Virus record (IMG/VR): IMGVR_UViG_2718217709_000004
Length of the DNA stretch: 23,245 nt
Reading direction: 5' to 3' (one strand)
DNA from: a virus
Taxonomy: Duplodnaviria > Heunggongvirae > Uroviricota > Caudoviricetes
The notes beneath the pieces are model-generated. The model was not told the origin of the DNA. It saw only the letters and a list, made by a program, of their open reading frames with translations, and ran no database searches. Position numbers and translations under genes: made by a program. Within the stretch, counting starts at the first letter, position 1. Each line of letters opens with the position of its first letter. Of this stretch, positions 190 through 14,036 are shown piece by piece.

Positions 190-330
190 TTACTGCTTAC
201 ACTGTAAGAACGCCGCAAACTCCGCTCCCCAGAAGCTCATCCGTATTTCACACAGCGAACCGTGCAGCATCCAGATGATGAGGATTACCGTCACGCAGAA
301 CGTGATGGCCGTAAGCGATTTTTGCGACAT
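190..330 (-). CDS. hok: Hok/Gef-family type I toxin-like membrane peptide (46 aa)
   Basis: Hand translation of the minus strand gives MSQKSLTAITFCVTVILIIWMLHGSLCEIRMSFWGAEFAAFLQCKQ: one hydrophobic helix, then the SLCE(I/L) motif and an AAFLxCK tail as in HokA. AAGGAG RBS lies 6 nt upstream inside an inverted repeat that could sequester it. Too short to appear in the ORF track. Confidence 0.7.
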   Translation of the reverse strand: MSQKSLTAITFCVTVILIIWMLHGSLCEIRMSFWGAEFAAFLQCKQ

Positions 331-519: not shown

Positions 520-780
520 TTAATTCTGAGGTAAAGGCAAGCTCATCTGATTGTTTCCCCTGTGTGAAGCTGGCAGTTCATGCCACGGGATACCTTCTGA
601 AGAGTGAACGCCGGAGGCGTGTTTCGATGTGAATTTATGGAAAGCTTCCAGTGTTGAGAAGCATACGCCGCATTCCAGGTTGTTACACTGGTAATACTTT
701 TGCCGCACGGTGTTTGAATCATTTTCCGGACGACTGGTGCGGATACGGGCAGATGCGCCACAAAGCGGACAACGGAACAT
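520..780 (-). CDS. ogr: Ogr/Delta-type zinc-finger late gene activator
   Basis: 86-aa ORF beginning MFRCPLCGASARIRTSR...YYQCNNLEC, matching the P2 Ogr pattern MFHCPLC...HQCQNVNC (CxxC...CxxxxC). GGAGG RBS upstream of the ATG. Confidence 0.85.
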   Translation of the reverse strand: MFRCPLCGASARIRTSRPENDSNTVRQKYYQCNNLECGVCFSTLEAFHKFTSKHASGVHSSEGIPWHELPASHRGNNQMSLPLPQN

Positions 781-822: not shown

Positions 823-1932
823 TCACTCTGTTTCCGCTATCCATTCCGGGATTTTTGCCTCAAGCTCAAGCTGCGTGGTAAAGCCGCTGTTATCAATAGT
901 GTGCTCGGCTTTTGCAATGATCCAGTCCTGATTATCAATCTCGCTTTTAAATCCTGTTACCGTACCATGCATTTCGGGGTAGAGTTCTGCACGTCCACGC
1001 GCCAGCGTGATGGAGAATGATGCGGCTCCGCGTTGTAGCTGCTGCCACTTTGCCGCCGCTGCGCGTCTTGCTGCCTGTTCGTTCTGATAGGTCTTGCGTA
1101 ACACAAACACATTGCCTTCCGCGCCTTCCATATAATCACCTTCACGGCTGCTGCTTTTCTCCTTTTTGGGTTTTGGCGGTTTGCGGCGTTTCACGCTGAC
1201 TTTTTTCTTTTTCCCGTAATTAAGATCAAGCCAGTAAGCGCGTACCCCCGTATACGCTTCGCGGTCAGCAATGCGGAACTGATGGCGATCGCCACTGCTG
1301 CGCGTGATGGCGAACGAGGGCAACGGCTGGCCCTGTGCGTTCACGCCACCGCCTGGCATGATGAATAACAGATTACCGCTTTTTACCGTAGTGATTGCGC
1401 CCAGCATTTCCGCCATGCGCGTAAGGAAGGACATGTCGCTTTCTTCGGTCTGGTCGGCGTGGTCGATTTCGATATCCATCAGCATTTCGCTGATTTGCGG
1501 TTTCAGACCATACCGATGAGCGATGGCGGATACCACACGCTCAACGGTCACATCATGCCAGGACACCTCACGTTTAACGTTAAATTCATCCCGAAAATCT
1601 GCGCTTCTGGCTGAAACAGTCAGCCTGTCCGGCGGTCCTTCGTGAGCGATTTCATCAACAATGTAAGTGCCTTTTTCTGTCAGCGGTTCTCCCTTCCAGC
1701 CAATGAGAACCGTCAGGCGCGCGCCCCGTGGCGGTAGCTGCAACTGACCATCCGCATCATCCAGCGTGATGGTGAGCTGGTCCGCCTCAAATCCCCGGTT
1801 GTCGGTCAGTGACAGGCTCATCAGGCGCTCTGCCACGCCTGACAGCGTTTTACCCTCCGCGAGAATATCAAAATCCGGCATTTTTACGGGGTCTGTGCCC
1901 TGACTGAGCAATTGCATGGTGGTGTCGGTCAT
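823..1932 (-). CDS. D: P2 gpD-like tail protein (late control gene D)
   Basis: Contains the conserved RLMSLSLTDNRGFEADQL block typical of gpD. Start placed at MTDTTMQLL (ATG 1930-1932) because a GGGAGG RBS precedes it; the ORF-track start at 2064 would add an R/S/T-rich leader. An internal start at MPDFDIL is possible. Confidence 0.8.
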   Translation of the reverse strand: MTDTTMQLLSQGTDPVKMPDFDILAEGKTLSGVAERLMSLSLTDNRGFEADQLTITLDDADGQLQLPPRGARLTVLIGWKGEPLTEKGTYIVDEIAHEGPPDRLTVSARSADFRDEFNVKREVSWHDVTVERVVSAIAHRYGLKPQISEMLMDIEIDHADQTEESDMSFLTRMAEMLGAITTVKSGNLLFIMPGGGVNAQGQPLPSFAITRSSGDRHQFRIADREAYTGVRAYWLDLNYGKKKKVSVKRRKPPKPKKEKSSSREGDYMEGAEGNVFVLRKTYQNEQAARRAAAAKWQQLQRGAASFSITLARGRAELYPEMHGTVTGFKSEIDNQDWIIAKAEHTIDNSGFTTQLELEAKIPEWIAETE

Positions 1933-2089
1933 CTGCTCCCTCCCTGTGCGGCATGGTCGCATGTGCGTGCGGAGGGGGTTACTGCTTTTTGTTGTCGCCG
2001 TGGCGAGAGAACGGCGCAGGGGTGAGATTACGCGCGTGGTGGGTGATGATTGTTGCCGAATCATTTAACGGATACAAGGGGCTGAAGCT

Positions 2090-3274
2090 ATGAGTGAAAC
2101 TCGTTTTCATGGTGCCCGTGTTACGGAAAATACCGACCTGGTAACAGCGATTAACGATGTTGATTCCAGCGTTATCGGTATCGTGGCAACGGCGGATGAT
2201 GCGGACGCGAAGCTGTTCCCGCTGAACAAGCCCACACTGCTGACCCGCGTCAATGACGTGCTGGGAAAATGCGGGACAACGGGGACGCTTTATCGTGCGC
2301 TTAAGGCCATCGCAGACCAGGTGAGTACAAAGGTGATCGTCGTTCGCGTGGCTGAACACAAAGAAGAAGACGGAAAAACGCAGGATCAACTGGTTATCGG
2401 TGGTTCTGAATCTGACGGCAGCTATACGGGGATGTATGCGCTGCTTGTTGCAGAGCAGGATGAAAGCATCGGATACCGTCCGCGTATTCTGGCCGCGCCG
2501 GAGCTGGACACGGAGGCGGTAACAAAATCCCTGTGCGTGATTGCGGGTAAACTGCGCGCGTTTGTGTATGCCTCATGTCACGGCTGTAACACGATGGCTG
2601 AGGCGATTACCTACCGCCAGAAATTCAACGAACGTGAGGTGATGCTCTTATGGCCGGACTTCATCGCCTACAACCCGAAAAGTGGCAAAAACGAAACGTT
2701 CCCCGCGCCTGCCTATGCGTGCGGCCTTCGTGCGTACATTGACCATGAGCAGGGTTGGCACAAATCGCTGTCCAACGTTCCGGTTAAAAATGTGCTGGGG
2801 ATGTCCAGGCATGTGTTCTGGTCGTTGCAGGCCGAAGACAGTGATGCCAACAGCCTCAACAACAAAGAAATCACGACCATTATTCGTCGCAACGGGTTCC
2901 GCTTCTGGGGCAACCGCACACCGGAAACGAACGCCTACATCTTTGAGGTGTATACCCGAACCGCACAGGTGCTGGCTGATTCAATTGCGGAAGCGCAGTT
3001 TGAAACCATCGATAGTCCACTGACGCCTGCGAACGTGAAGGATGTTATCAGTGCCATCAGGGCAAAACTGGATTCACTGGTGACTGCCGGGAAACTGATT
3101 GGGGCGTCGTGCTGGTATGACGTGGTGGATAACAGCACCACGAATTTACGTCAGGGGCGTGTGCGTATTCGCTACAAATATACGCCCGTTCCTCCGCTGG
3201 AAGACATGGAGCTTTACCAGTCGTTTACTGATGAATTCTTTGGTCCCGCATTTGCGGTGCTGGGAGGTGCCTGA
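2090..3274 (+). CDS. FI: tail sheath protein (P2 gpFI-like)
   Basis: 394-aa ORF of P2 FI size, immediately followed by tube, chaperone and tape measure genes; the stop overlaps the FII start (ATGA). Confidence 0.85.
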   Translation: MSETRFHGARVTENTDLVTAINDVDSSVIGIVATADDADAKLFPLNKPTLLTRVNDVLGKCGTTGTLYRALKAIADQVSTKVIVVRVAEHKEEDGKTQDQLVIGGSESDGSYTGMYALLVAEQDESIGYRPRILAAPELDTEAVTKSLCVIAGKLRAFVYASCHGCNTMAEAITYRQKFNEREVMLLWPDFIAYNPKSGKNETFPAPAYACGLRAYIDHEQGWHKSLSNVPVKNVLGMSRHVFWSLQAEDSDANSLNNKEITTIIRRNGFRFWGNRTPETNAYIFEVYTRTAQVLADSIAEAQFETIDSPLTPANVKDVISAIRAKLDSLVTAGKLIGASCWYDVVDNSTTNLRQGRVRIRYKYTPVPPLEDMELYQSFTDEFFGPAFAVLGGA

Positions 3275-3786
3275 TGGCTGTACCAAAACATCTTCGCTTT
3301 TTTACGCTGTTTGTGGATGGTGAAAACGAAGTGGGTAAGGTGACGTCCGTCACCCTGCCTAAACTGACGCGCAAAACCGACAGCTACCGGGGTGGTGGCA
3401 TGATGGGTGCGGTAAGTATTGATCTCGGTCTGGACGACTCCGCGCTTGATGCGAGCTTTGTCATGGGGGGCGCAGTTCGTGAGCTGTTCCTTAAGTATGG
3501 CGGCACGATTGACGGCACGCTACTGCGTTTTGCGGGTGAATACTACACCGATGCAGAAAGCGACCTGTATGAAGTCGAAATGCGCGGACGCGTGACGGAA
3601 ATTGATATGGGGGAAGCCAAACAGGGCGAAGCCACATCACACACTTACGCCATTAAAAACACCTACTACAAGCTGAGTGTTAACGATCGTCCGTTGTGGG
3701 AGATTGACCTGCTGAACTTCATTTACCGGAAGGACGGCAAGGACATTGTGCCCGATCGCATCCGTTCCGCGCTTGGGCTTGGCTGA
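3274..3786 (+). CDS. FII: tail tube protein (P2 gpFII-like)
   Basis: 170-aa ORF translationally coupled to FI; size and position match gpFII. Confidence 0.85.
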   Translation: MAVPKHLRFFTLFVDGENEVGKVTSVTLPKLTRKTDSYRGGGMMGAVSIDLGLDDSALDASFVMGGAVRELFLKYGGTIDGTLLRFAGEYYTDAESDLYEVEMRGRVTEIDMGEAKQGEATSHTYAIKNTYYKLSVNDRPLWEIDLLNFIYRKDGKDIVPDRIRSALGLG

Positions 3787-3840
3787 TAAGTAATATGCAG
3801 GCGGCGCAGTGCGTCGCCTCTGACTGAAAGGAGTTTCCTG

Positions 3841-4206
3841 ATGAAAGAGACGAAAAACATCGATACCGAAAACACGGTAGTTGCTGACACTGTGAAAGAA
3901 ACCAGTGAGCGTGGCGTAAAACTTACCCAACCAATTGAGCGAGGCGGCGAAAAAATCACGTATGTGGAGATCACCGGGGCTATTGAGCAGGCTGGATCTC
4001 TGCGAGATTTGTCGCTGTCTGATGTGCTGAATCTGAAAGCGGAATCCATGTTTACGCTGCTGTCACGAGTGACATCACCGCGACTGGATGAAGTGACGAT
4101 CAAAAAAATGGCATCCCGTGACTTTATTCAGTTATGTGTGGTTGCCGTAAATTTTTTGAGCGGTGCGGACTCTGGCGGGAAGAACGAACAGGCGACGGAA
4201 GCCTGA
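3841..4206 (+). CDS. E: tail assembly chaperone (P2 gpE-like)
   Basis: 121-aa acidic protein between tube and tape measure genes; carries a slippery TTTTTTG near its 3' end. Confidence 0.8.
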   Translation: MKETKNIDTENTVVADTVKETSERGVKLTQPIERGGEKITYVEITGAIEQAGSLRDLSLSDVLNLKAESMFTLLSRVTSPRLDEVTIKKMASRDFIQLCVVAVNFLSGADSGGKNEQATEA

Positions 4207-4370
4207 TCACGGTTGTGTGCTTTGAGCACATAGAAGACTTTGTGGCAGATATTGCCGTTATTTTTAACTGGTCGCCCGCCGAAATCTTCATGATGACGCC
4301 CGGCGAAGTGGTTAGCTGGCGTGAGCGGGCGGCACTTCGCAGCGGGAATGCAGACAATGAAGACTCTTGA
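3841..4370 (+). CDS. E+E' frameshift product (programmed -1 frameshift)
   Basis: Slippery heptamer T TTT TTG at 4152-4158 in the E frame; the -1 frame stays open to 4370 (same frame as track ORF 4134..4370) and ends overlapping the T start. This is the conserved chaperone frameshift arrangement. Confidence 0.65.
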
Positions 4371-7164
4371 TATCCGGGTCGCTTTCAGCGCCGTTGACAG
4401 GCTGACCCAGCCTGCCGAAAACGCCCGCCGCCTGATGGGGCAGTTTGGTGACTCCATCCAGCGAACGCAGGGGGCGATCAAAAATCTCGAGCGTCAGGCG
4501 CGTTCATTTGAGCGCGCCCGCGACGCTGTCAGTAAAGCGGATGCGGGTATCGTGAAAGCACGACGCCAGCTTAACGCCCTTAATCAGTTACAACGCACGG
4601 GTACAGTGCTCAGCGAAAAACAACAAAAGCTGATGCAGCAGTTAAGCACCCGGCTTGAACGCCTGAATGAATCGCGCACGCGGGAAATTCAGAAAATGCG
4701 GGAGCTTGGCGGAGAGCTGAAACGCCACGGCATTTCCCTGACAGGCAGCGATAACACCATCCAGCAGGCCATCAGACGCACCGAACAGTACAACAATCAG
4801 CTTGAACGCGAACGGCAGGCGCTTGCGCGTGTAACGCGGGCGCGTGAGCGGTATTCGCGCGCGCAGGAAACAGCGGGAAAACTGAAAACAGGTGGTGCAC
4901 TGGCAATTGGTGCGGCAGCGGCGGGCGGCTATGCTGCCGGGCGTTTTTTGCAGCCTGCGATCGGGTTCGGGAAAGAGATGTCCCGCGTTCAGGCACTGAC
5001 GCGAATCGACCAGAACAGCCCGCAGTTTAAGGCGCTGCGTGAGCAGGCGTTAAAACTTGGCTCTGAAACGCAGTTCACCGCAGGCGATGCCGCCAGTGGG
5101 CAGGCATTTCTGGCAATGGCTGGCTTCACACCGCAGGCCATTCAGGCTGCGCTTCCCGGCGTGCTGAGCATGGCAACGGCTGGCGGTATGGACCTTGGCG
5201 AGACGGCAGATATTGGCTCAAATATCCTGACGCAGTTCGGCCTCTCCGCTGACCAGATGGACCGGGTCGGTGACACGCTTACAGCAGTGTTTACCCGTAC
5301 TAACACTGACCTTCGCGCACTGGGCGAAACCATGAAATATGCAGGTCCGGTGGCGGGTAAGCTGGGAATATCGCTGGAGCAGGCCGCAGCGATGGCGGGC
5401 GTGCTGGCGAATATGGGTATCAGAGGGAGTGATGCCGGGACGGCAATGCGTGCCAGCCTGGCTCGTCTGGCATCACCGCCAAAGGCGGCAGCAGAAGCGC
5501 TGAAAGAGCTGGGTGTGTCCGTCTCTGATGCGAACGGCAAAATGCGCCCGATGGAAGATGTGCTGGCCGACCTTTATAAAGCCACCCGTAAATACGGGGA
5601 AGTTGACCGGGTATCGTTCTTTAAGGACATTGCCGGGGAAGAGGCTTTCACGTCGTTTATGGCTCTCGTTGATGCGGCGGGTGACGGCTCCCTGCCCAAA
5701 CTGAGAAAAGAACTTGAGGGCGCACGCGGTGAGGCTGAACGCACGGCAAAGGTTATGGCCAATAACCTTGATGGCGACCTGAAATCACTCGGCAGTGCAT
5801 GGGAAGGGCTGCGTATCCGCATTGCAGATCTGATTGATGGTCCGCTGCGTTCTGTCACGCAGTGGCTCACGCGGGTGGTCTCAAAGGTGACGGCGCTGGC
5901 ACAGGCCCATCCGGTACTGACGCGCCAGTTACTGATAGCAGGCGGTGCGCTGCTGGCAATGACTGCAACGGTTGGCTCGTTGTCGCTGGTTATTGGAGTG
6001 CTTCACGGGAAGCTGGCCACGTTGCGTCTTGGTTTTTCTCTCCTGACCGGATCAATGAATGCTGTCAGGCTCCTGCCAGCACTATGGGGAATGGTGACGG
6101 GTTCCGTTTCGTTACTGGGGGGCGCTATCGGGGCGCTGTTCAGCCCGGTCGGATTGATTGCTGCTGCGTTTGTGGCTGCGGCAGTTCTCATCTGGAAATA
6201 CTGGGAACCCATCAAGGCGTTTTATGCCGGGGTGTTCAGCGGGATTATGGAGCGGCTGGCCCCGTTACGCGAAACCTTTGAACGGTTTGGTCCTGTTTTT
6301 GACGCAATCGGAAGCGGGATAAGTCAGGTGTTTAACTGGTTTAAATCGTTGCTGTCACCGATGGAGTCCAGCAAGGAAACGCTGGATAAATGTACCAGTG
6401 CTGGCGAGATATTCGGTAACGTTCTTGGCGGTGCGTTACAGCTTGTTCTGACGCCCGCAAAAATGTTGCTGGATACGCTGGCGTGGATACTTGAAAAACT
6501 CGGTGTGCTTCCGGATGAAGCGGAAAGGGCGAGAAAGAAAATCGAAGACGCACAGCGTGCGGCCATTCTTCAGGACAAGGTTGCTCTGTTTCAGGGAGAC
6601 ATTGCGAAAATCAATCCGCCGAAGTCTGCGGAAAATGGCAATGGCACCGGAGGTGATAAACCCAAAGACAATAAACCGCTCACAGACAGCAATACCGGTA
6701 CGCTACGCAGACTCAGCAAAATTGCTGATAACACAGGTAAGCTGGTTGATGAGACGAAAAAACGTATTGGCCCCGGCGATATTGTCTTTAAGAACCTGCC
6801 CCGCGCACTTGCCGTTCGTGGGGAGTGGCAGGAGCGGAAGATTGTGCAGGTCAGTAAGCCTGCCCCCGCAATTAATATCACACCCGTGGTCCCGGCTCCG
6901 CTGCCTCCGGCGCTGGTCCCTGTTGTTGCGGCCAGCTCCCGCCCGGTGGCGGAGGCCATACGATCTCCAGTGGCATCAGTTCCTGTAACTTCCCGTAACC
7001 GGGAGCCTGTTGCCTCCGGATTTGGTGGTGAAATTCATGTTCATCTGCATAACGTTGTTACGCAGAATCCCCGCGAACTGGCGAAACTGGTCGGTGAAAT
7101 GGTCAGGGCAGAAATGGAACGGCGCGCCCGTGCCGGGCGTGGCAGTTTTTACGATAAAGATTGA
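4357..7164 (+). CDS. T: tail tape measure protein (P2 gpT-like)
   Basis: Long ORF (about 940 aa) with an N-terminal coiled-coil region, central hydrophobic/Gly-Ala-rich segments and a Pro-rich C-terminus. Start is uncertain between 4321, 4348 and 4357; 4357 (MKTLDIRV) overlaps the E' stop. Confidence 0.85.
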   Translation: MKTLDIRVAFSAVDRLTQPAENARRLMGQFGDSIQRTQGAIKNLERQARSFERARDAVSKADAGIVKARRQLNALNQLQRTGTVLSEKQQKLMQQLSTRLERLNESRTREIQKMRELGGELKRHGISLTGSDNTIQQAIRRTEQYNNQLERERQALARVTRARERYSRAQETAGKLKTGGALAIGAAAAGGYAAGRFLQPAIGFGKEMSRVQALTRIDQNSPQFKALREQALKLGSETQFTAGDAASGQAFLAMAGFTPQAIQAALPGVLSMATAGGMDLGETADIGSNILTQFGLSADQMDRVGDTLTAVFTRTNTDLRALGETMKYAGPVAGKLGISLEQAAAMAGVLANMGIRGSDAGTAMRASLARLASPPKAAAEALKELGVSVSDANGKMRPMEDVLADLYKATRKYGEVDRVSFFKDIAGEEAFTSFMALVDAAGDGSLPKLRKELEGARGEAERTAKVMANNLDGDLKSLGSAWEGLRIRIADLIDGPLRSVTQWLTRVVSKVTALAQAHPVLTRQLLIAGGALLAMTATVGSLSLVIGVLHGKLATLRLGFSLLTGSMNAVRLLPALWGMVTGSVSLLGGAIGALFSPVGLIAAAFVAAAVLIWKYWEPIKAFYAGVFSGIMERLAPLRETFERFGPVFDAIGSGISQVFNWFKSLLSPMESSKETLDKCTSAGEIFGNVLGGALQLVLTPAKMLLDTLAWILEKLGVLPDEAERARKKIEDAQRAAILQDKVALFQGDIAKINPPKSAENGNGTGGDKPKDNKPLTDSNTGTLRRLSKIADNTGKLVDETKKRIGPGDIVFKNLPRALAVRGEWQERKIVQVSKPAPAINITPVVPAPLPPALVPVVAASSRPVAEAIRSPVASVPVTSRNREPVASGFGGEIHVHLHNVVTQNPRELAKLVGEMVRAEMERRARAGRGSFYDKD

Positions 7165-7176
7165 GGAGTCATGGCC

Positions 7177-7665
7177 ATGATGATGATCTACGGCATGTTT
7201 GTTTTTGAGCTGCGCACGCTGCCGCATCAGCAGTTACAGCAAAACAAAAGCTGGCGGCATGTGAAAAATGAACGCGTTAACCGTTCAGCAAGCTGGCAGT
7301 ATATCGGTGCAGGTGATGATCGCATCGTTCTTTCTGGTGTGCTTTATCCTGAAATTACAGGTGGCGAAGTGTCGCTGTCGCTGCTGACCACGCAGGCGTA
7401 TACAGGACGACCCTGGCCTTTGATTGATGGCGTCGGGCAGATTTACGGCATGTATGTCCTGACCGGAACGAACACGACCCGTTCCGAGTTTGATCGCTAC
7501 GGTAAGGCGAAAAAGATAGAATTTTCACTGACCCTTGAACGCTGTGATGAGGATTTGCGGGAGCGCCTGCAATCCTCATCGTTCAGCGATATGCTGTCCG
7601 GCTTCAAAGATAAAGTGACATCATCCCTTAACAGCGCGGCCAGTTCAGTTAAAGGGCTGTTCTGA
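7177..7665 (+). CDS. U: tail protein gpU-like
   Basis: Motifs VLSGVLYPEITGG and WPLIDG...IYGMYV parallel P2 gpU. Start chosen at the second or third ATG (7177) for spacing from the GAGGAG RBS at 7163-7168. Confidence 0.8.
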   Translation: MMMIYGMFVFELRTLPHQQLQQNKSWRHVKNERVNRSASWQYIGAGDDRIVLSGVLYPEITGGEVSLSLLTTQAYTGRPWPLIDGVGQIYGMYVLTGTNTTRSEFDRYGKAKKIEFSLTLERCDEDLRERLQSSSFSDMLSGFKDKVTSSLNSAASSVKGLF

Positions 7666-7682
7666 TTTAATGCTGGCCACTC

Positions 7683-7714
7683 ATACCTGGTAATAAGTGG
7701 CCAGTCTTAACACT
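7683..7714 (+). terminator. hairpin downstream of U (possible terminator)
   Basis: 9-bp stem ctggccact / agtggccag with a 14-nt loop; the downstream tract is only weakly T-rich. Confidence 0.35.
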
Positions 7715-7827
7715 CACCATTTGATTGCACCCGCGTTAACGATTTGTTACTGGGTATCAGACATGCTGGATAGCCAGTAGAAACATACCATTAAAATTAT
7801 TACAATAATTGGTCACATGATTATCTT

Positions 7828-8391
7828 ATGCTGAATAATAGAGATATGAATATTAATGAACTTAAAGACTGTATTCACTATGAAGTAATCGGTAGCGAGC
7901 GTCCTTTCTCCTGGCGAAAGGCAATTGTTCGCGCAATAAAACATAGAAGACTTCGTTATTTATTTTGGTGGCGCATAGCCAAATACCTTTTTGATAAAGG
8001 CGGATACTGCCGGAAGATTGCGGGGAAAATAGAACGTTTCATTCTTGATAAATATAATGTAACAGTCCCTTTAACTGTAAATATAGGGAAAGGCTTTGAT
8101 ATTTCTTATCTCAACAGTGTTGTTATCGGTCACAAAGTAACAATCGGTGAAAATTGTTCAATAAAACCGGGGGTAACTATTGGGCTACGTGGTGATTTTA
8201 ATGATATGGATATTGTTATAGGACATAATGTGACCATTGGTTGTAATGCCACCATTCTTGGTGGCAAAGTGCGTATAGGAAACAATGTCACAATAGGTGC
8301 TCATGCATTGGTATTGCATGATATTCCTGATGATTCAACATTCATCACTAAATTTCAGTCTGAAGTTATCTGCTCGTCCTCCCGCACATAA
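7828..8391 (+). CDS. hexapeptide-repeat (left-handed beta-helix) acetyltransferase, serine acetyltransferase/WcaB-like; cargo gene
   Basis: Repeated [LIV]-G-x-x-x-x hexads ([21 protein letters not shown]...[34 protein letters not shown]) and an N-terminal [13 protein letters not shown] segment typical of this acetyltransferase class. The region 7680-8400 is markedly AT-rich against GC-rich phage flanks. Start codon uncertain (7828 or 7846). Confidence 0.75.
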
Positions 8392-8972
8392 CCCTGATTC
8401 ATCAGCTCTGGCCATACGATATCCGGAGCTGTACTGGTGTCAATTCTACTCACTAATACTCTGTATTTTCTCCAGGAATCCAGTTGTGAATTTTCCTCGT
8501 TTGTTGCTATTTCAAGATTAACTGCATCCTGCAGAATTGCGATGTTATCTGTTGCCTCCTGGATCAACCTTGCCTTTTTCTCTTCCGCTTCCCGTATCCG
8601 AAACAGCTTTTCTGCTTCCTCATCCTTCACCCAGGATACGCCGTCCCACTTCTGATATTCCCCTGCTGGCGACAACCAGGTGACATTCTCTGGTAGCGGT
8701 CCGGGTTCAGAAATAAACAACGCGTCCCCCGATGCCACGTCATAGACCGTTTTACCACGATGGTCTTCAACAATATTCCACGATTCATTTTCACTGTTAA
8801 AAATTGCCACAAAGCCAGCAGGAATTTCCGGTGGGGCGATATCTGTAGAATTAGCTGGCAGCCCTGTATGAGGTGGAATATATGCGTCACCTTCACCAAT
8901 AAACTCATTAGTTCCGGCCAGCAGGTTATAAATTTTTACAGTACGTGATTGTTCACTCATTCTGAATGCCAT
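8355..8972 (-). CDS. G: tail fibre assembly chaperone (P2 gpG / Tfa-like)
   Basis: 205-aa ORF directly downstream of the tail fibre gene with the C-terminal [23 protein letters not shown] signature. Its last ~12 codons overlap the acetyltransferase gene in antisense. Confidence 0.8.
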
Positions 8973-11629
8973 TATGCAAGCCTCACAATATAATTAAATG
9001 CGATGTTTTTAACGGTGTTTTCCGCGTTACCAGCAGCGTTAACGGTGATGGTATGTCCATGTGAACCAATCGCAACAGAGTGCGTATGAGCGCCAATACC
9101 AACAGTGTGTGCATGTGCCCCAGCACTTGTAGCGGTACCTGATACTGAGTGGGTATGTGCGCCAGAAGAAGGCACAGTTCCATTCCCCACCACCGTGCCA
9201 CTTGATGCACCATCCAGCCAGTCGAAATTCATACCGCCACTGTTTGGTCTCCTTAATGGAACGGTATGAGTATGTGCGCCAGCACTATTTGCAGTACCAG
9301 ATACATTGTGGGTATGTGCACCTGTGTTATTCGTTGATTTAGTACCGTAATCAAACGAAGATGTGGTTTTCGTACCCAAATCCGTATTGGATGCGCTGGC
9401 GCTGTGGGTGTGCGATTTAATGCCATCCTGTTCCAGAGACAATACGTCCCGACCACTGGCGGGTTTGCCCTTGATTGTCCAGCCACGCATATCCGGGATC
9501 ACGCCTGACGGATAAGCGGCTGCAAGTTTCGGGTATGCAGATTTGTCAAAAGTCTGTCCCTGCATCAGGGCGTAACCAGACGGCACAGTATCTGATGGCC
9601 ACGGCAGCGGAACACCTGGCGGAAACGCTTCAATATTTGCCGAGCCGTCAAATTTTACGCCGTTAATTGTCCTTGCCGTTTTCAGCTTTGTTGCTGTAGC
9701 AGCATTGCCGGATAGTTCGCCTGAAAGACCACCGCTGAATGTCTGTTTCGCCGCCCATGTCTGAGCTTCGTCGATAATTGGCACACGTCTTGTCGTAATC
9801 GTGCGGCTTCCCGGATTTCCTGAAATGCGAACCATAAAAAAGCGGTAATTCGCTTTACTTACAGTGCTGCGCCATACATGCATTGAGCGCCCCGTACCAG
9901 AATCATCACTCGGACCAACTGCGATGTTTATCAGGTTGCCATCAATGACGCCCCAGTCCATACCGTCGGGAATATTGGTCATGTTATCAAGCCGAACGGT
10001 TATCAGACTGCCCGGCACAAAATCGTAGGTCTGCCAGTCCAGGCTGGTGAGTTTTGCCACTGCGCCACCGATACCCAGATTCAGGGGAAGTGAATAAGAT
10101 GTGTAAACTTCCCGCCATTCGCTCCACGAGCTGCCGGTATAAACGCGCTCAAACGTGCGACCTTTAAGGGTTGCACCTGTTCCGGCGGTTGTATAACGTT
10201 GCCATACGTTAACGCCATCAAAGCGCCTCAGCACTTCCAGAATACCGAGTACAGTCACGCCGTTTCCGTCCAGTATTGGACCATTGGTCGCTTTACCTGT
10301 AACGCTGTAAATACCTGGTGAGGTTACATCATTCAAATCACCGTCGTAATAACGGCTTTCTGACTGGTAGCCCACTCTTGACCACGGCTCCCATTGTGGG
10401 TTCTCTGCATCCCACGAGGCCGAAAGACAGCGAACATAAACATTTCCACGGCGGGTCGTGTAACGCTGCGTTCGCGAGTAACCACCACCTTCAAGAACTT
10501 CAAGGAGTCCCTGACCATAACTTCCTTCTTCCGGATAGTTGCGGTCAAATGAAGCGATTGAGCCACTACTGTTTCGCCATAAACCAAGATGCTCTGCGCC
10601 TCCGAGCGTGTTCAGGTCAATGGTTGTGCTCAGGGGGCGTGTTGCAGACTGAACCTGACGCCAGTAACTCCACGGACCGTCTGAACCATTCCATGTGCCA
10701 GAAAGGTTGCGCATATAAACATTGCCTGTTCTGGTGGTGTAACGCTGCATTCCTGCAAAATTACCGCCATTGAATACCTCCAGTACACCGACTGCACCGT
10801 CTTCAGGGAAATTTTTAGCAGCCGTCGCGTTAGTGGATGTAGCTTTAGACCAGACGCCAAGATAAGCCTTAACGGGACCAAATGTATTCAAGTCAGCATC
10901 AAGCGGCATTTCGCCATTGTTTTTCATAAACGTCAGGCTGGTAACGCCAACATTGTCCAGAAAAGCGCCCTTATCTGGAATATCGTCACCGTTCTGGTCT
11001 TTCTGCATACGTTTTTCAGCATTGTCATAGGCTGCTTTTACTGCCTTTGGCGTTGCCGCCAGCTCTTCACTGGTGCTGTTTGTTGCGCTACTTAACTGAG
11101 TAAAACCTTTTTCTGTCAGCGTGGCGTCAGGATGGCGGCGGGATTGCTCATGCTCTGCGATTTTGTCATCGACGTAATCCTGCGTCGCCATCACTGTGCT
11201 GGCATCAATACTCAGCTCAACGGACGCTACGTTGCTGACAGTAATAACCATGCGGCAGGTCTGCGCGCGCCCGGAGCCTTCAGCGAGTTCAGGCTTATAG
11301 CTTTCCGCCATGTTAGCGACCGCAATCAGTGTTCCGGCATCGTCATACAGACCCAGCTCACGCATCCAGAAGCCGCCCACTTCTGGCGGTACAACCAGTT
11401 CAGCCACGATATAGTTTTTATTCTTGTTATCCACGCTGACTTTATTCAGAGCGTGACGCCAGACCTCATGCACCAGTTTCGTCTGACCGGCATCCGGCAC
11501 CGGCAATTTGCCATTACCGTCACCCACGGCCATTGCAGACAGAGTTACTTTTTTCCCGCCGGGGACAGTGGCGGCTGCCAGCTTCGCGGCTCCGGCAGTA
11601 GTGATAGCGGTTTTAAATTTCGTGCTCAT
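8972..11629 (-). CDS. H: tail fibre protein (P2 gpH-like)
   Basis: 885-aa ORF with a conserved P2-type N-terminal region, three internal repeat units (QRYTTRxGNVY...W..W) and a C-terminal region with iterated GAHTHxV HxH motifs, followed by a Tfa gene. Confidence 0.85.
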
Positions 11630-11639
11630 TGTTTCTCAC

Positions 11640-12167
11640 TTATCCGGGATAAACAGTAATAACATCACCATCACAGACCACACCGCCTGTATACAGATAG
11701 CCGGGAATGTCCTGGATAATGTTCAGGCCGATAAGGTGGCGACTTGCGGGTTTGGCATCGGCAATCAGCCGTTCCATTTCCAGATACATTTCCTCGGTCA
11801 CACCACTGTCCAGCGTGCCAACATCAACCTTGAATGTTCCGGGTTCGCCGTCGAACTCCCACCACTCAGACACGCGAATGAGGTATCCCAGCGGCTCAAT
11901 GGCCCGGCGCAGTGCGCTGATGGTCCCTTTGTGTCGGTGTATCAGCCATGCATCACGAATAACCTGTCGCTTTGTCTCTTCCGGCCAGTTGCGATCCCAG
12001 CGGTCAACGGAAAATGCCCAGGCGAGATAAGGCAGCAGATGCACCGGGCAGGTGTCCGGTGACCACAGCGTGTTGAGGTCTACCGGGATGTTTGTAATGC
12101 GCGCTCCGACAGCTTCGGCGCAACGCATGAAATTGCTGGCTGATGGTGGTAACAGTGAATTACTCAT
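11640..12167 (-). CDS. I: baseplate assembly protein gpI-like
   Basis: 175 aa from MSNSLLPP; the ATG overlaps the stop of the upstream J fragment. Size and position match gpI. Confidence 0.8.
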   Translation of the reverse strand: MSNSLLPPSASNFMRCAEAVGARITNIPVDLNTLWSPDTCPVHLLPYLAWAFSVDRWDRNWPEETKRQVIRDAWLIHRHKGTISALRRAIEPLGYLIRVSEWWEFDGEPGTFKVDVGTLDSGVTEEMYLEMERLIADAKPASRHLIGLNIIQDIPGYLYTGGVVCDGDVITVYPG

Positions 12168-12474
12168 TACGCCCACCTTCGCTGATGGTGAATGACTCAC
12201 AGCGCGCCGCCTGTATGTCGCTGATGGCCATATTCTGTGTGGGTTCGATTATCTCCACGCGTTGCACACCGTGCACATGCAGTGCGGCAGCAATGGCGGA
12301 CAACGCCACGTCCTGACCGATAAGCCCCTGCTCAGCCAGCCACTTCCTGAACGACGATTCAGCCGCAGCCAGAATAGGTTCGGATTCCGGGCCGGGATAA
12401 AAGTACAGTTTTGCATTCAGCCGCCATGTCACGATTCTGGCGCTCTGACGGGCATGGCGAGAGATAGTGCTCAA
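12160..12474 (-). pseudogene. J: baseplate gpJ C-terminal fragment (5'-truncated)
   Basis: Only about 100 codons remain of a ~300-aa protein (...ILAAAESSFRKWLAEQGLIGQDVALSAIAAALHVHGVQRVEIIEP...). No J N-terminus, W, V, S or R genes lie upstream. Confidence 0.7.
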
Positions 12475-12619
12475 CGTTCACGCGGGCAGCGTAAACATCC
12501 GGGTTGAAGTTCTCGGCGGCTTCACGCAGATGTACCGGGCTGATTTCGCGGCCATCAACAGTTGATCCGGAGACAGCCACGCGAAACTTTTTGCGGGATG
12601 TCTTTTTTTCATTAGCCAT
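12359..12619 (-). pseudogene. O: capsid scaffold gpO N-terminal fragment fused out of frame to the J remnant
   Basis: MANEKKTSRKKFRVAVSGSTVDGREISPVHLREAAENFNPDVYAARVNVEHY parallels the P2 gpO N-terminus; GAGGGG RBS upstream. After about 50 codons the frame runs through J-derived sequence and stops at 12359. Confidence 0.7.
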
Positions 12620-12773
12620 AGTTTTTGCCCCTCTGACTGGTTCTTCAGTCATGATGGCAAAGCGTAACAGGCTGATACAAAGGGCTTTTGTTGTAAGAAA
12701 ACGGCCAGAACAGGGGGTTAAGGAGAACGGTTTCGCGCGCGGGTAATCTTCCTGTAATTACTCAGGGGGAGCA

Positions 12774-14036
12774 ATGATTCAGGACGCTTTTGTGCGCCAG
12801 CGTGCGCGGCAACTTTACTGGCAGGGTTATCCGCCCGCAGAAATATCACGTCTGATGGGAATAAACCCGAACACGATTTATGCGTGGAAAAAACGCGACC
12901 AGTGGGATGAAACGCCCCCCGTGCAGCGTGTCACGCAGTCCATCGATGCGCGCCTCATCCAGCTTACTGAAAAACAGAATAAAACAGGCGGTGACTTTAA
13001 GGAAATAGACCTGCTGACCCGGCAGCTTAAAAAGCTGCATGATGGCCAGCCGGATGTGATGGCCGCAGGAAAGAAAGGCCGGGCGAAAAAACTTAAAAAT
13101 CATTTCACGCCGGAACAGATTGCCGCACTGCGGGAAAAAATCATCAGCAGGCTGGAGTGGCATCAGCGGGGCTGGTTTGACTCCCTGACACTTTGCAGGG
13201 AAGCCGGGATACGTAACAGGATGATCCTGAAATCCCGACAGATTGGGGCGACCTGGTATTTTGCACAGGAAGCTCTGCTGATGGCGCTGCGTGACGATGT
13301 GGCGCAACCTTACCAGCGTAACCAGATTTTTTTGTCTGCGTCGCGTCGTCAGGCGTTCCAGTTTAAAAGCATTATTCAGAAGGTCGCGGCTGAAGTTGAT
13401 GTGGAGCTGAAAGGGGGCGATAAAATCATCCTCTCCAACGGCGCAGAGCTGCATTTTCTCGGCACTTCTGCTGCGTCGGCACAGTCCTATACGGGCAATT
13501 TTTATTTTGATGAATTTTTCTGGGTCAGTCGCTTTGCTGAACTGCGCAAGGTGGCTGGCGCTATGGCAACCCTCAGCGGACTGCGGCGCACCTACTTCTC
13601 CACGCCATCCACCGAAACGCACGAGGCGTACGCCTACTGGAACGGCGACCGCTGGAACGAGAAAAAGGCCTCGCATAAACGCCAGCGTTTTTCTGTGGAC
13701 TGGAAAACGCTGCATAACGGGCTTATCTGCCCTGACCGGACTTGGCGGCAAATTGTCACGCTGGAAGATGTGGTTAATCACGGCTGGAAACACACCGATA
13801 TCGACGAAATTCGTGATGAAAACACCGAAGACGAGTTCCTCAATCTCTATATGTGTGAGTTTGTCCGCGAAGGGGAATCGGCATTTAACCTGAATATCCT
13901 GATTGGCTGCGGTGTTGACGGATACGACGACTGGAAAGACTGGAAACCTTTTGCTCCCCGCCCGATGGGGAATCGTCCGGTATGGATTGGGTATGACGCA
14001 AACGGCAGCAGTGGCAACGGCGACATGCCAGCTTGA
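12774..14036 (+). pseudogene. P: terminase large (ATPase) subunit gpP, 3'-truncated
   Basis: N-terminal two-thirds of a P2-type large terminase (MIQDAFVRQRARQLYWQGYPPAEISRLMGINPNTIYAWKKRDQWDE...). The ORF ends at 420 aa and the A gene stop is only about 110 bp away, so no portal Q or cos can follow. Confidence 0.8.

Follow-up and report, generated by a model that had tools for sequence, protein, structure and literature searches.

A serine acetyltransferase-like gene beside the tail fibre tip of a P88-like prophage is a candidate glycan-modifying moron

The window, a 23,245-nucleotide stretch of Caudoviricetes DNA (IMG/VR record IMGVR_UViG_2718217709_000004), derives from a decayed P88-like Escherichia coli prophage that is a non-inducible remnant. 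Between the tail gene encoding gpU and the tail fibre assembly gene tfa lies a cargo slot, and it is occupied by a single gene specifying a hexapeptide, left-handed beta-helix (LbH) protein (Table 1). Public records call this gene "serine acetyltransferase," "transferase," or "LbetaH domain-containing protein." The initial annotation of this DNA had described an AT-rich cargo gene adjoining tfa, and both its position between gpU and tfa and its GC content of 0.377 (GC3 0.30) bear this out. The accompanying claim of GC-rich flanks holds in part. Specifically, GC is 0.36-0.38 across 7600-8350 in 300-nt windows, so the AT-richness of the gene is real, but its closest flanks are merely moderately GC-rich (gpU 0.52 and tfa 0.46-0.48, with 0.50-0.60 farther away).

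Table 1. Features of the cargo slot and the adjoining tail fibre genes, with positions in the window
Feature	Coordinates	Strand	Evidence or description
gpU tail gene, which closes the P88-like FI-FII-E-T-U operon and borders the cargo slot on the left	7171-7665	+	Pfam Phage_P2_GpU, E 1.5e-38
Stem-loop just past the gpU stop	7667-7710	+	18-nt inverted repeat arms; RNA fold -19.8 kcal/mol, z -1.84
Upstream conserved cassette region	7758-7845	+	Homology to P1-like and lambdoid copies
Hexapeptide (LbH) protein gene	7846-8391	+	546 bp, 181 aa; Pfam Hexapep, PHROG 2154
Convergent LbH/tfa overlap	8355-8391	both	37 bp; C-terminal tail of the LbH protein, modelled at low confidence, against part of a 15-aa Tfa extension
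Tail fibre assembly (chaperone) gene tfa, lambda-type	8355-8972	-	205 aa; Pfam Caudo_TAP, E 1.6e-39
Tail fibre gene H, mosaic (P88-like N-terminus plus cassette tip)	8972-11629	-	885 aa; Pfam Phage_tail_fib, Phage_fiber_2, Collar; BLASTP
C-terminal receptor-binding fibre tip, residues ~655-885 (Collar plus His-rich repeats)	8975-9667	-	Pfam Collar, Phage_fiber

DNA homology to P88 and further Xuanwuvirus phages stops at 7670. Homology to other copies of the LbH gene and its surroundings begins at 7758 for a P1-like copy and at 7777 for a lambdoid copy. By these alignments, the real left junctions map to about 7670 and to 7758-7777, and the spacer at 7666-7757 is part of neither P88 nor the cassette. 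The stem-loop that follows the gpU stop could possibly terminate the operon; with its modest z score and no U tract, support for a clear intrinsic terminator is weak. P88 itself fills this slot with a DNA invertase plus an alternative fibre segment. In phage P2, the Z/fun cargo site downstream of G is termed "moron position 2" (PMC3573123). The initial annotation had likened the locus to this site, and the topology is indeed the same, but the backbone here is P88-like and the other neighbour is gpU. Features expected of a moron site are present: the slot lies between gpU and tfa, and its gene has low GC3, a promoter-like match, and no counterpart in P88.

The longest reading frame for the LbH gene spans 7828-8391(+) and encodes 187 aa. 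The ATG at 7828 is missing from an 85%-identical copy, the second Met is the first residue in homologues, and the RefSeq annotation of the gene is 546 bp. We therefore place the start at the ATG at 7846 and reject 7828. Upstream, a sigma-70-like match, TAGAAA-17-TACAAT, lies at 7778-7806, and its -10 element reads TATAAT in both other cassette copies that were compared. A weak candidate ribosome-binding site, AGAGA, precedes the ATG. Region 7758-7845 would supply the gene with its own promoter and ribosome-binding site.

At its other end, the LbH gene converges on tfa. An overlap of about 37 bp with the tfa 3' end had been noted previously, and it is exactly 37 bp; its reading as an insertion junction fails. 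Homology among cassette copies continues straight through the overlap in three phage backbones, and the overlap itself is explained by a small deletion in tfa. Specifically, in the L008 copy Tfa ends ...WPEL-TGA, 10 bp past the LbH stop codon. Relative to that copy, a 2-bp deletion took out the tfa stop and added the 15-aa extension to Tfa in one sublineage. From 8471 onward, tfa shows about 82% nucleotide identity to lambda tfa, and the Tfa protein is 85-98% identical to the tfa products beside other LbH copies.

The colinear unit extends beyond tfa into the fibre gene. The similarity of gpH to P88 is confined to residues 4-204, and its tip is 75% identical to a lambdoid Stf tip and 64.5% identical to the fibre of Citrobacter phage phiNP, both of whose genes are likewise followed by tfa and then by an LbH gene. 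P88-like, lambdoid, and P1-like elements, together with a 47-kb phage-plasmid, all carry the LbH gene, tfa, and the fibre tip in colinear order, and an LbH gene also faces tfa in Hafnia phage yong2 and in phiNP. Among 80 related IMG/VR viral loci, 56 carry a convergent tfa within 62 bp of an LbH homologue that is 36-100% identical. By comparison, none of 80 LbH-family loci in one-genome-per-species bacterial contigs has a tfa within 4 kb. Linkage to tfa therefore characterises the phage copies and does not extend to the family as a whole. Because chromosomal relatives of similar identity exist without an adjoining tfa, the family is not intrinsically phage-specific. We found no Din-type crossover core in the window and neither an invertase nor an alternative tip at the slot, which rules out the remnant of an invertase crossover site.

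Carriers of the LbH gene number 183 of 5426 complete E. coli genomes (about 3%). Disruption in close relatives, which the initial annotation had raised as a counterargument, does occur, but only a minority of copies show it: at least six enterotoxigenic (ETEC) genomes have IS1 within the ORF, and truncation affects a few copies; most remain intact. In the clade to which the window's copy belongs, dN/dS is 0.075 at a dS of 0.68, a value that reflects strong purifying selection; together with the intact ORF in most of the 183 genomes, it rules out a decaying pseudogene. The ORF in the window is likewise intact, although the prophage that hosts it lacks baseplate, head, and lysis genes.

The fold of the LbH protein is clear. 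Pfam Hexapep (PF00132) matches at 47.5 bits in two stretches (cutoff 27), and PHROG 2154, annotated as "unknown function," matches over its full length (E 7.2e-79; residues 5-186 to profile positions 2-184 of 185). An AF2 monomer model (pLDDT 91.9, pTM 0.83) has helices over about the first 70 aa and a left-handed beta-helix after them; its pLDDT drops at the C-terminus, first to 72 and then to 46. In Foldseek, the top 50 PDB matches are all LbH serine acetyltransferases (SATs; probability 1.00, TM ~0.7). The protein lies outside the curated families, as every NCBIfam match falls under its cutoff. The EpsC-type model NF041874 is best, at 81 bits over residues 30-173 against a cutoff of 150. 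The WcaB models TIGR04016 and PRK10191 give 59.8 and 61.9 bits (cutoffs 194.65 and 196), and the CysE models TIGR01172 and PRK11132 give 70.6 and 44.4 bits (cutoffs 210.65 and 397), the last match beginning only at profile position 112. The helical N-terminal domain spans about 70 aa versus about 140 in SAT, and Pfam finds no SATase_N domain in the protein. The earlier label of a CysE/WcaB-like acetyltransferase consequently survives at the level of fold and superfamily, but membership in CysE, WcaB, or EpsC is ruled out by these cutoffs and by key residues. The product is presumably a soluble, cytoplasmic, trimeric LbH acyltransferase of a short "serine-acetyltransferase-like" subfamily that occurs in polysaccharide gene clusters.

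Those key residues include the catalytic dyad. In SAT, His158 is the general base and Asp143 is its partner (PMC8786284). In our alignment to SATs, these positions are occupied by Tyr88 and Thr73 in the LbH protein, a replacement that the initial annotation did not anticipate. Tyr occurs at the His158 position in all eight members of the window's clade and nowhere else in the alignment; 84 of 95 aligned family members, and the sister clade, retain His. The Tyr clade spans 53-100% identity, carries T, K, or V at the Asp143 position, possesses no alternative His conserved across its eight members, and has further clade-specific substitutions at P108, D122, and T130. The serine-binding loop is altered as well, with GDRHPK of SAT, in which Arg192-His193 form the serine-binding pair, aligning with FNDMDI. 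Because His158 and Asp143 align with Tyr88 and Thr73, canonical O-acetyl transfer may be lost or changed in the Tyr clade. The clade-wide change from His to Tyr provides a natural experiment on LbH catalysis.

Clues to function come from the company that relatives keep. Three relatives (31-32% identity) reside inside polysaccharide biosynthesis clusters among genes for glycosyltransferases, a flippase, NeuB, and a polysialyltransferase. A closer relative, 40% identical and from Leminorella grimontii, resides in the LPS-core (waa) locus, between waaY/GT8 and the O-antigen ligase gene. Of the roles offered by the initial annotation, modification of a surface polysaccharide is thus the best supported. 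Our literature searches found no study of this LbH family.

Because the gene is linked to tfa in phages and has relatives in polysaccharide clusters and in the waa locus, the best reading, to which we assign a probability of about one-half, is a moron of the lysogenic-conversion kind whose product acylates a precursor of an envelope glycan. The notion is that the LbH gene is a single-gene moron and stands last in a mobile host-range cassette made up of fibre tip, Tfa chaperone, and LbH gene. Its low GC3, its conserved promoter-like site, and its orientation opposite to the late genes are moron traits. It would be transcribed from its candidate promoter toward the end of the late tail fibre operon, and because it has that promoter and is oriented against the late operon, expression in the lysogen is probable. 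At the cytoplasmic face of the membrane, the enzyme would transfer an acyl group from acyl-CoA to a sugar of a glycan precursor. The leading candidate acceptor is the LPS core or O-unit, with colanic acid, ECA, and capsule as alternatives; O-acylation of such an acceptor would have to proceed with Tyr in place of His. The altered lysogen surface would in turn alter adsorption of phages that use that glycan, with serotype conversion or exclusion of superinfecting phages as the outcome. The phage's own receptor would not necessarily be masked, because fibre tips of the lambda Stf/T4 gp37 type can bind protein (OmpC) instead of glycan. Also counting against the glycan-acylation reading are the loss of the dyad, the alleles that are truncated or disrupted by IS1, and the chromosomal relatives that lack tfa.

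The dyad gives rise to the alternative that fares best, although we judge it improbable: the Tyr-clade protein would act without Asp-His catalysis, in a non-canonical or even non-catalytic manner. A remodelled site (Tyr88, Asp122, and Pro108) or base-free acylation of an amine could preserve enzymatic activity. Alternatively, the protein might bind a glycan precursor, or co-assemble with and poison a host LbH trimer such as WcaB. According to the report of the NeuO structure, a catalytic histidine is common to all crystallised LbH family members (PMC3046976), and the Tyr clade departs from this rule. Consistent with a coordinated change, the loss of His and the relaxation of the Asp position occur together across the clade, accompanied by the further clade-specific residues, while most of the family and the sister clade keep His. 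The low dN/dS argues that this dyad loss is not decay. Some LbH sugar N-acetyltransferases, QdtC and WlbB among them, lack a catalytic base. Against this alternative, His-type homologues, in phiNP and at many IMG/VR loci, occupy the identical place beside a homologous tfa and tip; because both types share that place, we argue for one shared role that a His-type enzyme could catalyse. In its fullest form, the idea is that selection maintains a SAT-fold protein without the Asp-His dyad as a dedicated third partner to tip and Tfa in a mobile host-range cassette, endowed either with new chemistry (a Tyr/Asp site or base-free acylation) or with the capacity to bind or poison the host glycan pathway. 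We consider that form rather doubtful. If it is correct, the Tyr clade remodels the surface in a manner distinct from NeuO, Oac, Gtr, and NeaT.

A cytoplasmic antiphage defence or abortive infection factor, residing at a cargo hotspot and acting independently of the cell surface, is very unlikely. The P2 G/FI region and the int-adjacent region are cargo sites, the His-type homologue of phage ESSI2_ev040 adjoins a gene for an "abortive infection family protein," and that of phiNP adjoins hicAB. Searched against the defence models of PADLOC-DB 2.0, however, the LbH protein matches none of the families at E <= 0.1, which removes a match to a known defence system and speaks against the antiphage function put forward in the initial annotation. 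Moreover, the gene is small, stands alone with an enzyme fold, and has no nuclease, NTPase, or sensor partner, and all informative contexts of relatives are those of glycan biosynthesis.

About as unlikely is an accessory role in virion assembly, in which the protein, during lytic growth, would modify the tail fibre or Tfa or assist in their folding. Such a role would account for the tight linkage to tfa and the tip, which is very consistent across diverged phages, and Streptococcus thermophilus 987-group phages do carry a distant LbH homologue in mid-genome. But the gene is convergent to the late operon and has its own promoter-like site, it is AT-rich unlike structural genes, and it is intact in remnants that are unable to make virions or that have a pseudogene fibre. 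Furthermore, relatives sit in chromosomal glycan loci, and P88 and lambda build fibres without it. Finally, a genuine serine O-acetyltransferase serving auxiliary cysteine metabolism, as the RefSeq name and the closest solved structures would have it, is almost certainly not what the gene encodes, given the CysE scores, the replaced Asp-His dyad and serine-binding loop, and the short N-terminal domain without a SATase_N match.

Carriers of the gene include ETEC lineages, P1-like phage-plasmids, and lambdoid and P2-like prophages. If acylation of LPS or another envelope glycan is correct, an unrecognised factor converting serotype and phage susceptibility is spreading together with a receptor-binding tip, with a bearing on host-range prediction in phage therapy and on O/K-antigen typing. 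The trio of tip, chaperone, and modifier represents a testable model of a phage that carries a key together with the means to change the lock.

Known systems provide both precedents and contrasts. With respect to gene order, one comparison is to the invertible host-range segments of P88, P1, and Mu, which comprise a DNA invertase, an alternative tip, and tfa. Such segments take the position held here by the LbH gene, at the 3' end of the fibre-tfa operon, where P88 and P1 carry the invertase, and both arrangements are exchangeable host-range modules. By contrast, tip and tfa are fixed here, and the LbH gene comes next, with no invertase. With respect to the protein, WcaB, which functions in colanic acid production, and EpsC (NF041874) share a length of about 160-190 aa and a short helical N-terminus preceding the LbH domain. 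They are the best curated matches (60-62 and 81 bits, respectively), yet these lie far under the equivalog cutoffs (195 and 150). The LbH gene resides in a phage fibre cassette and not in a glycan cluster, and the family His is Tyr here. CysE is the closest solved fold (TM about 0.7), but the LbH protein lacks its Asp143-His158 dyad, serine-binding Arg-His pair, long N-terminal domain, and C-terminal tail.

In the biology that we propose, the LbH gene appears analogous to neuO and neaT, and not homologous in detail to either. NeuO is the polysialic acid O-acetyltransferase of the E. coli K1 prophage CUS-3 and protects against K1 phage (PMC3046976, PMC9659370). Like the LbH gene, neuO specifies a prophage-borne LbH acyltransferase and is cargo next to the end of the phage that binds the receptor (tailspike or fibre). 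NeuO itself is a soluble trimer; its modification of a surface polysaccharide makes the cell resistant to phages using that polysaccharide. It belongs to another LbH subfamily, with catalytic His147 and Trp171, and is phase-variable via a 5' heptanucleotide VNTR (poly-psi); the LbH protein has the SAT fold, an N-terminal helical domain, and Tyr at the SAT catalytic position. No NeuO/OatWY-type polysialate O-acetyltransferase is among the 54 PDB sequences that match at E <= 0.001, and no tandem repeats occur in 7500-8600 at a score of at least 30, which rules out NeuO-like phase variation. NeaT is an acyltransferase of a P2-like prophage, encoded at its G/FI moron site by an AT-rich gene (30% GC) (PMC3573123). 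In an arrangement that the LbH gene resembles, this single gene follows G, which serves in tail fibre assembly, and runs against the tail genes from its own promoter; NeaT affects surface-related behaviour and virulence. NeaT differs in being an integral membrane protein of the Acyl_transf_3 family (PF01757), unrelated to the LbH protein in sequence and fold.

The window corresponds to a P88-type E. coli prophage (Xuanwuvirus, Peduoviridae). It contains no baseplate J/W/V, lysis, capsid, or portal genes, and is thus a remnant. RefSeq annotation of a related strain places both hok and ogr beside a tRNA-Gly/Cys/Leu cluster.

Features of the P88-type prophage remnant
Feature	Coordinates	Strand	Remark
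hok/gef toxin gene	190-330	-	left end of remnant
ogr late-gene activator	520-780	-	left end of remnant
gpD	823-2064	-	
sheath, tube, E, tape measure, gpU	2090-7665	+	
LbH gene	7846-8391	+	between gpU and tfa
tfa	8355-8972	-	
fiber H	8972-11629	-	
gpI	11640-12200	-	
gpO scaffold	12359-12652		N-terminal fragment only, profile positions 2-52 of 268
terminase	12774-14036		truncated at 420 aa; abuts replication gene A
replication gene A, repressor-like HTH gene, integrase			in this order after terminase

The LbH gene encodes a left-handed beta-helix (hexapeptide) protein. The initial annotation described an AT-rich hexapeptide acetyltransferase gene here, and both the ORF and its composition are borne out: the hexapeptide repeats exceed the Pfam threshold, and the gene (GC 0.377, GC3 0.30) lies in a trough of 0.36–0.38 GC versus ~0.46–0.60 around it. 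We rejected a start at 7828 in favor of ATG 7846 (181 aa) because the 7828 ATG is absent from an 85%-identical copy, homologs begin at the second Met, and the RefSeq annotation is 546 bp long. The gene runs against the late operon, and a promoter-like site, TAGAAA-17-TACAAT (7778–7806; TATAAT in other copies), is conserved. Within the promoter/5′ UTR, positions 7799–7821 form a 23-nt imperfect inverted repeat (83% complementary) with mid-ORF positions 8225–8247, and a second pair links 7784–7797 with 8195–8208; such pairing may be chance or regulatory.

The protein’s best curated matches, all scoring well below the family cut-offs, are serine O-acetyltransferases of the EpsC type (score 81 versus a cut-off of 150) and CysE (70.6 versus 210.65), along with the colanic-acid acetyltransferase WcaB (60–62 versus 195). 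It belongs over its full length to PHROG 2154, annotated “unknown function.” The AlphaFold model, built with 95 homologs, is confident (pLDDT 91.9): four N-terminal helices spanning ~70 aa lead into a left-handed beta-helix, and the C-terminal tail is floppy. Every top PDB match to the model is a serine acetyltransferase (SAT; TM ~0.7), consistent with the sequence search. By inspection, the sequence has no signal peptide or membrane segment, so the protein should be cytoplasmic.

The catalytic center differs from that of SAT, in which His158 serves as general base, partnered by Asp143 (PMC8786284). Specifically, pairwise alignments to SAT structures and family alignments place Tyr88 and Thr73 at these positions. 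Among 95 aligned relatives, the residue at the His158 position is His in 84, Tyr in 8, and Asn in 3. All eight Tyr members together are exactly the window’s clade (53–100% identical, Hafnia phage yong2 among them), in which the Asp position drifts between T, K, and V. The sister clade (38–49% identical, Citrobacter phage phiNP included) retains Asp/Glu and His. Pro108, Asp122, and Thr130 are likewise specific to the window’s clade. Decay does not account for the dyad replacement, because dN/dS is 0.075 when the window copy is compared with one at dS 0.68. The alignments likewise show no counterpart of SAT’s serine-binding Arg-His loop. With dyad replaced and loop missing, the RefSeq name “serine acetyltransferase” is unjustified, and canonical His-based O-acetyl transfer by the window’s clade is in doubt.

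The LbH gene and the 3′ end of tfa, the tail fiber assembly chaperone gene, overlap by exactly 37 bp (8355–8391). The proposal that this overlap is an insertion junction does not survive comparison, as colinear alignment runs straight through it in different elements. Specifically, P88 homology ends at 7670, just past gpU, and from 7758 or 7777 rightward the upstream region, LbH gene, tfa, and fiber tip are colinear with copies in a P1-like prophage and P1-like phage-plasmids (93–98% nucleotide identity), a lambdoid prophage at prfC (85%), and a 47-kb RepA plasmid whose tail genes are P2-like. Tfa of the lambdoid copy terminates at ...WPEL-TGA, 10 bp past the LbH stop. A 2-bp deletion at this point in the window and in the P1-like copies destroys the TGA, and Tfa gains 15 C-terminal codons antisense into the LbH 3′ end (8355–8402 region). 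Given this 2-bp loss, the overlap is a small derived mutation within a pre-existing gene pair. Viral contigs show both alleles, overlapping and 14 bp apart. Copies of the P88-like, P1-like, and phage-plasmid kinds share the Tfa-extension allele, which is also the more frequent of the two in IMG/VR. Immediately 3′ of the gpU stop, a 10-bp GC-rich stem-loop without a U tract (7667–7710, z −1.84) sits in a 90-bp spacer matching neither P88 nor the colinear segment.

Fiber tip, tfa, and LbH gene form a cassette. Fiber H is a mosaic: residues 4–204 resemble P88 gpH, and residues ~655–885 are a Collar domain with His-rich repeats. This tip is 75% identical to a lambdoid Stf tip and 64.5% to the phiNP fiber, which are followed by related tfa genes (85% and 53% identical, respectively) and then LbH genes (~90% and 39%). 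The annotated phages yong2 and phiNP share the LbH-tfa arrangement. Across 80 retrieved IMG/VR loci (relatives 34–100% identical), a convergent tfa lies ≤62 bp downstream or overlaps in 56, namely 34 of 35 Tyr-type, 19 His-type, and 3 untyped loci, while several of the others stop too near a contig edge to judge. Quadragintavirus phages carry a His-type homolog at another cargo site, after int. On bacterial chromosomes (one genome per species), tfa never occurs within 4 kb of relatives 35–45% identical.

In phage P88 (locus L002, 6102–8250), the gpU-tfa slot is occupied by a DNA invertase together with an alternative, invertible fiber/tfa segment. A P1-like plasmid (L186, 3977–5001) carries the LbH cassette, which in P1-like phage-plasmids occupies the place taken in P1 by cin and the C segment. 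Thus, the fixed cassette and host-range switching by an invertase seem to be alternatives; the window retains no Din-type crossover core. The 47-kb RepA plasmid pSCU-204-5 (L185) carries the cassette alongside P2-like baseplate, gpI, and fiber genes; it appears to be a phage-plasmid whose tail module is of P2 type. At least five plasmids of 47–49 kb are among the matches listed, all with 97.3% identical gene copies. Two features merit follow-up: the gene keeps a fixed partnership with fiber tip and Tfa in many phage backbones, and its dyad replacement is conserved.

The Tyr-type gene occurs in 183 of 5426 complete E. coli genomes, ETEC O6:H16 lineages included, at 157 chromosomal places and 58 on plasmids (80–100% nucleotide identity). 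Disruption in close relatives, which the initial annotation would have counted against the gene, affects only a minority: at least six ETEC genomes carry IS1 within the ORF, and truncation is seen in a few copies. On NZ_LR883050.1 and five other ETEC chromosomes, IS1 splits an otherwise 100%-identical ORF into two annotated fragments. Our literature search found no paper on this LbH family; for the Citrobacter rodentium phiNP homolog, PMC6456863 gives no more than a listing as “fitness” cargo.

Outside phages, the gene neighborhoods of relatives point toward envelope glycans. Three such relatives (31–32% identical) belong to polysaccharide clusters that also encode glycosyltransferases, a Wzx-type flippase, NeuB, a CMP-sugar synthetase, and a polysialyltransferase. 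In Leminorella grimontii (L027, 1405–5836), the waa LPS-core locus includes a His-type relative (40% identical), which follows a GT8 glycosyltransferase and WaaY, precedes a convergent O-antigen ligase gene, and offers a lead to the family’s acceptor. In Enterobacteriaceae bacterium BIT-l23 (L021, 5001–6697), a 49%-identical His-type relative is the first of three tandem hexapeptide-repeat genes, in surroundings neither phage nor obviously glycan-related. The window gene has several hallmarks of a moron: it is AT-rich, has a conserved promoter-like site, runs counter to the late operon, and has survived in a prophage that no longer forms particles.

These contexts, the moron features, and the precedents below lead us to rank first, at a probability of about 0.5, a lysogenic-conversion enzyme that acylates a glycan precursor and alters phage adsorption or serotype. 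The acyl group would be put onto LPS (core or O-unit) or another glycan precursor in the cytoplasm, and the acylated glycan would alter adsorption or serotype. We infer the path from a tfa-linked, SAT-fold protein through glycan acylation to blocked adsorption. The initial reading stands in part, on the cargo, the family, and the likely role, but errs on the junction. Loss of the dyad under strong constraint would also fit a Tyr-clade protein that acts non-canonically or non-catalytically, a possible but less favored reading given that His-type homologs fill the identical niche. We consider a post-adsorption defense factor improbable: no PADLOC defense model matches the protein, and there is no partner gene. 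Slightly less probable still is a virion-assembly accessory, which orientation, composition, retention in remnants, and chromosomal relatives in glycan loci all speak against. A genuine CysE is highly improbable, as every defining feature tested fails.

Our preferred reading, glycan acylation, has two precedents. NeuO, an LbH O-acetyltransferase encoded by prophage CUS-3, adds acetyl groups to the K1 capsule and guards against K1 phages (PMC3046976, PMC9659370); a prophage-borne LbH protein in this role fits the candidate function. NeaT, an acyltransferase that a P2-like prophage encodes at its G/FI moron site (PMC3573123), shares both AT-richness and opposite orientation with the window gene. 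By kind, then, the window gene is a previously uncharacterized candidate within a known class, the prophage-borne glycan acyltransferase morons.
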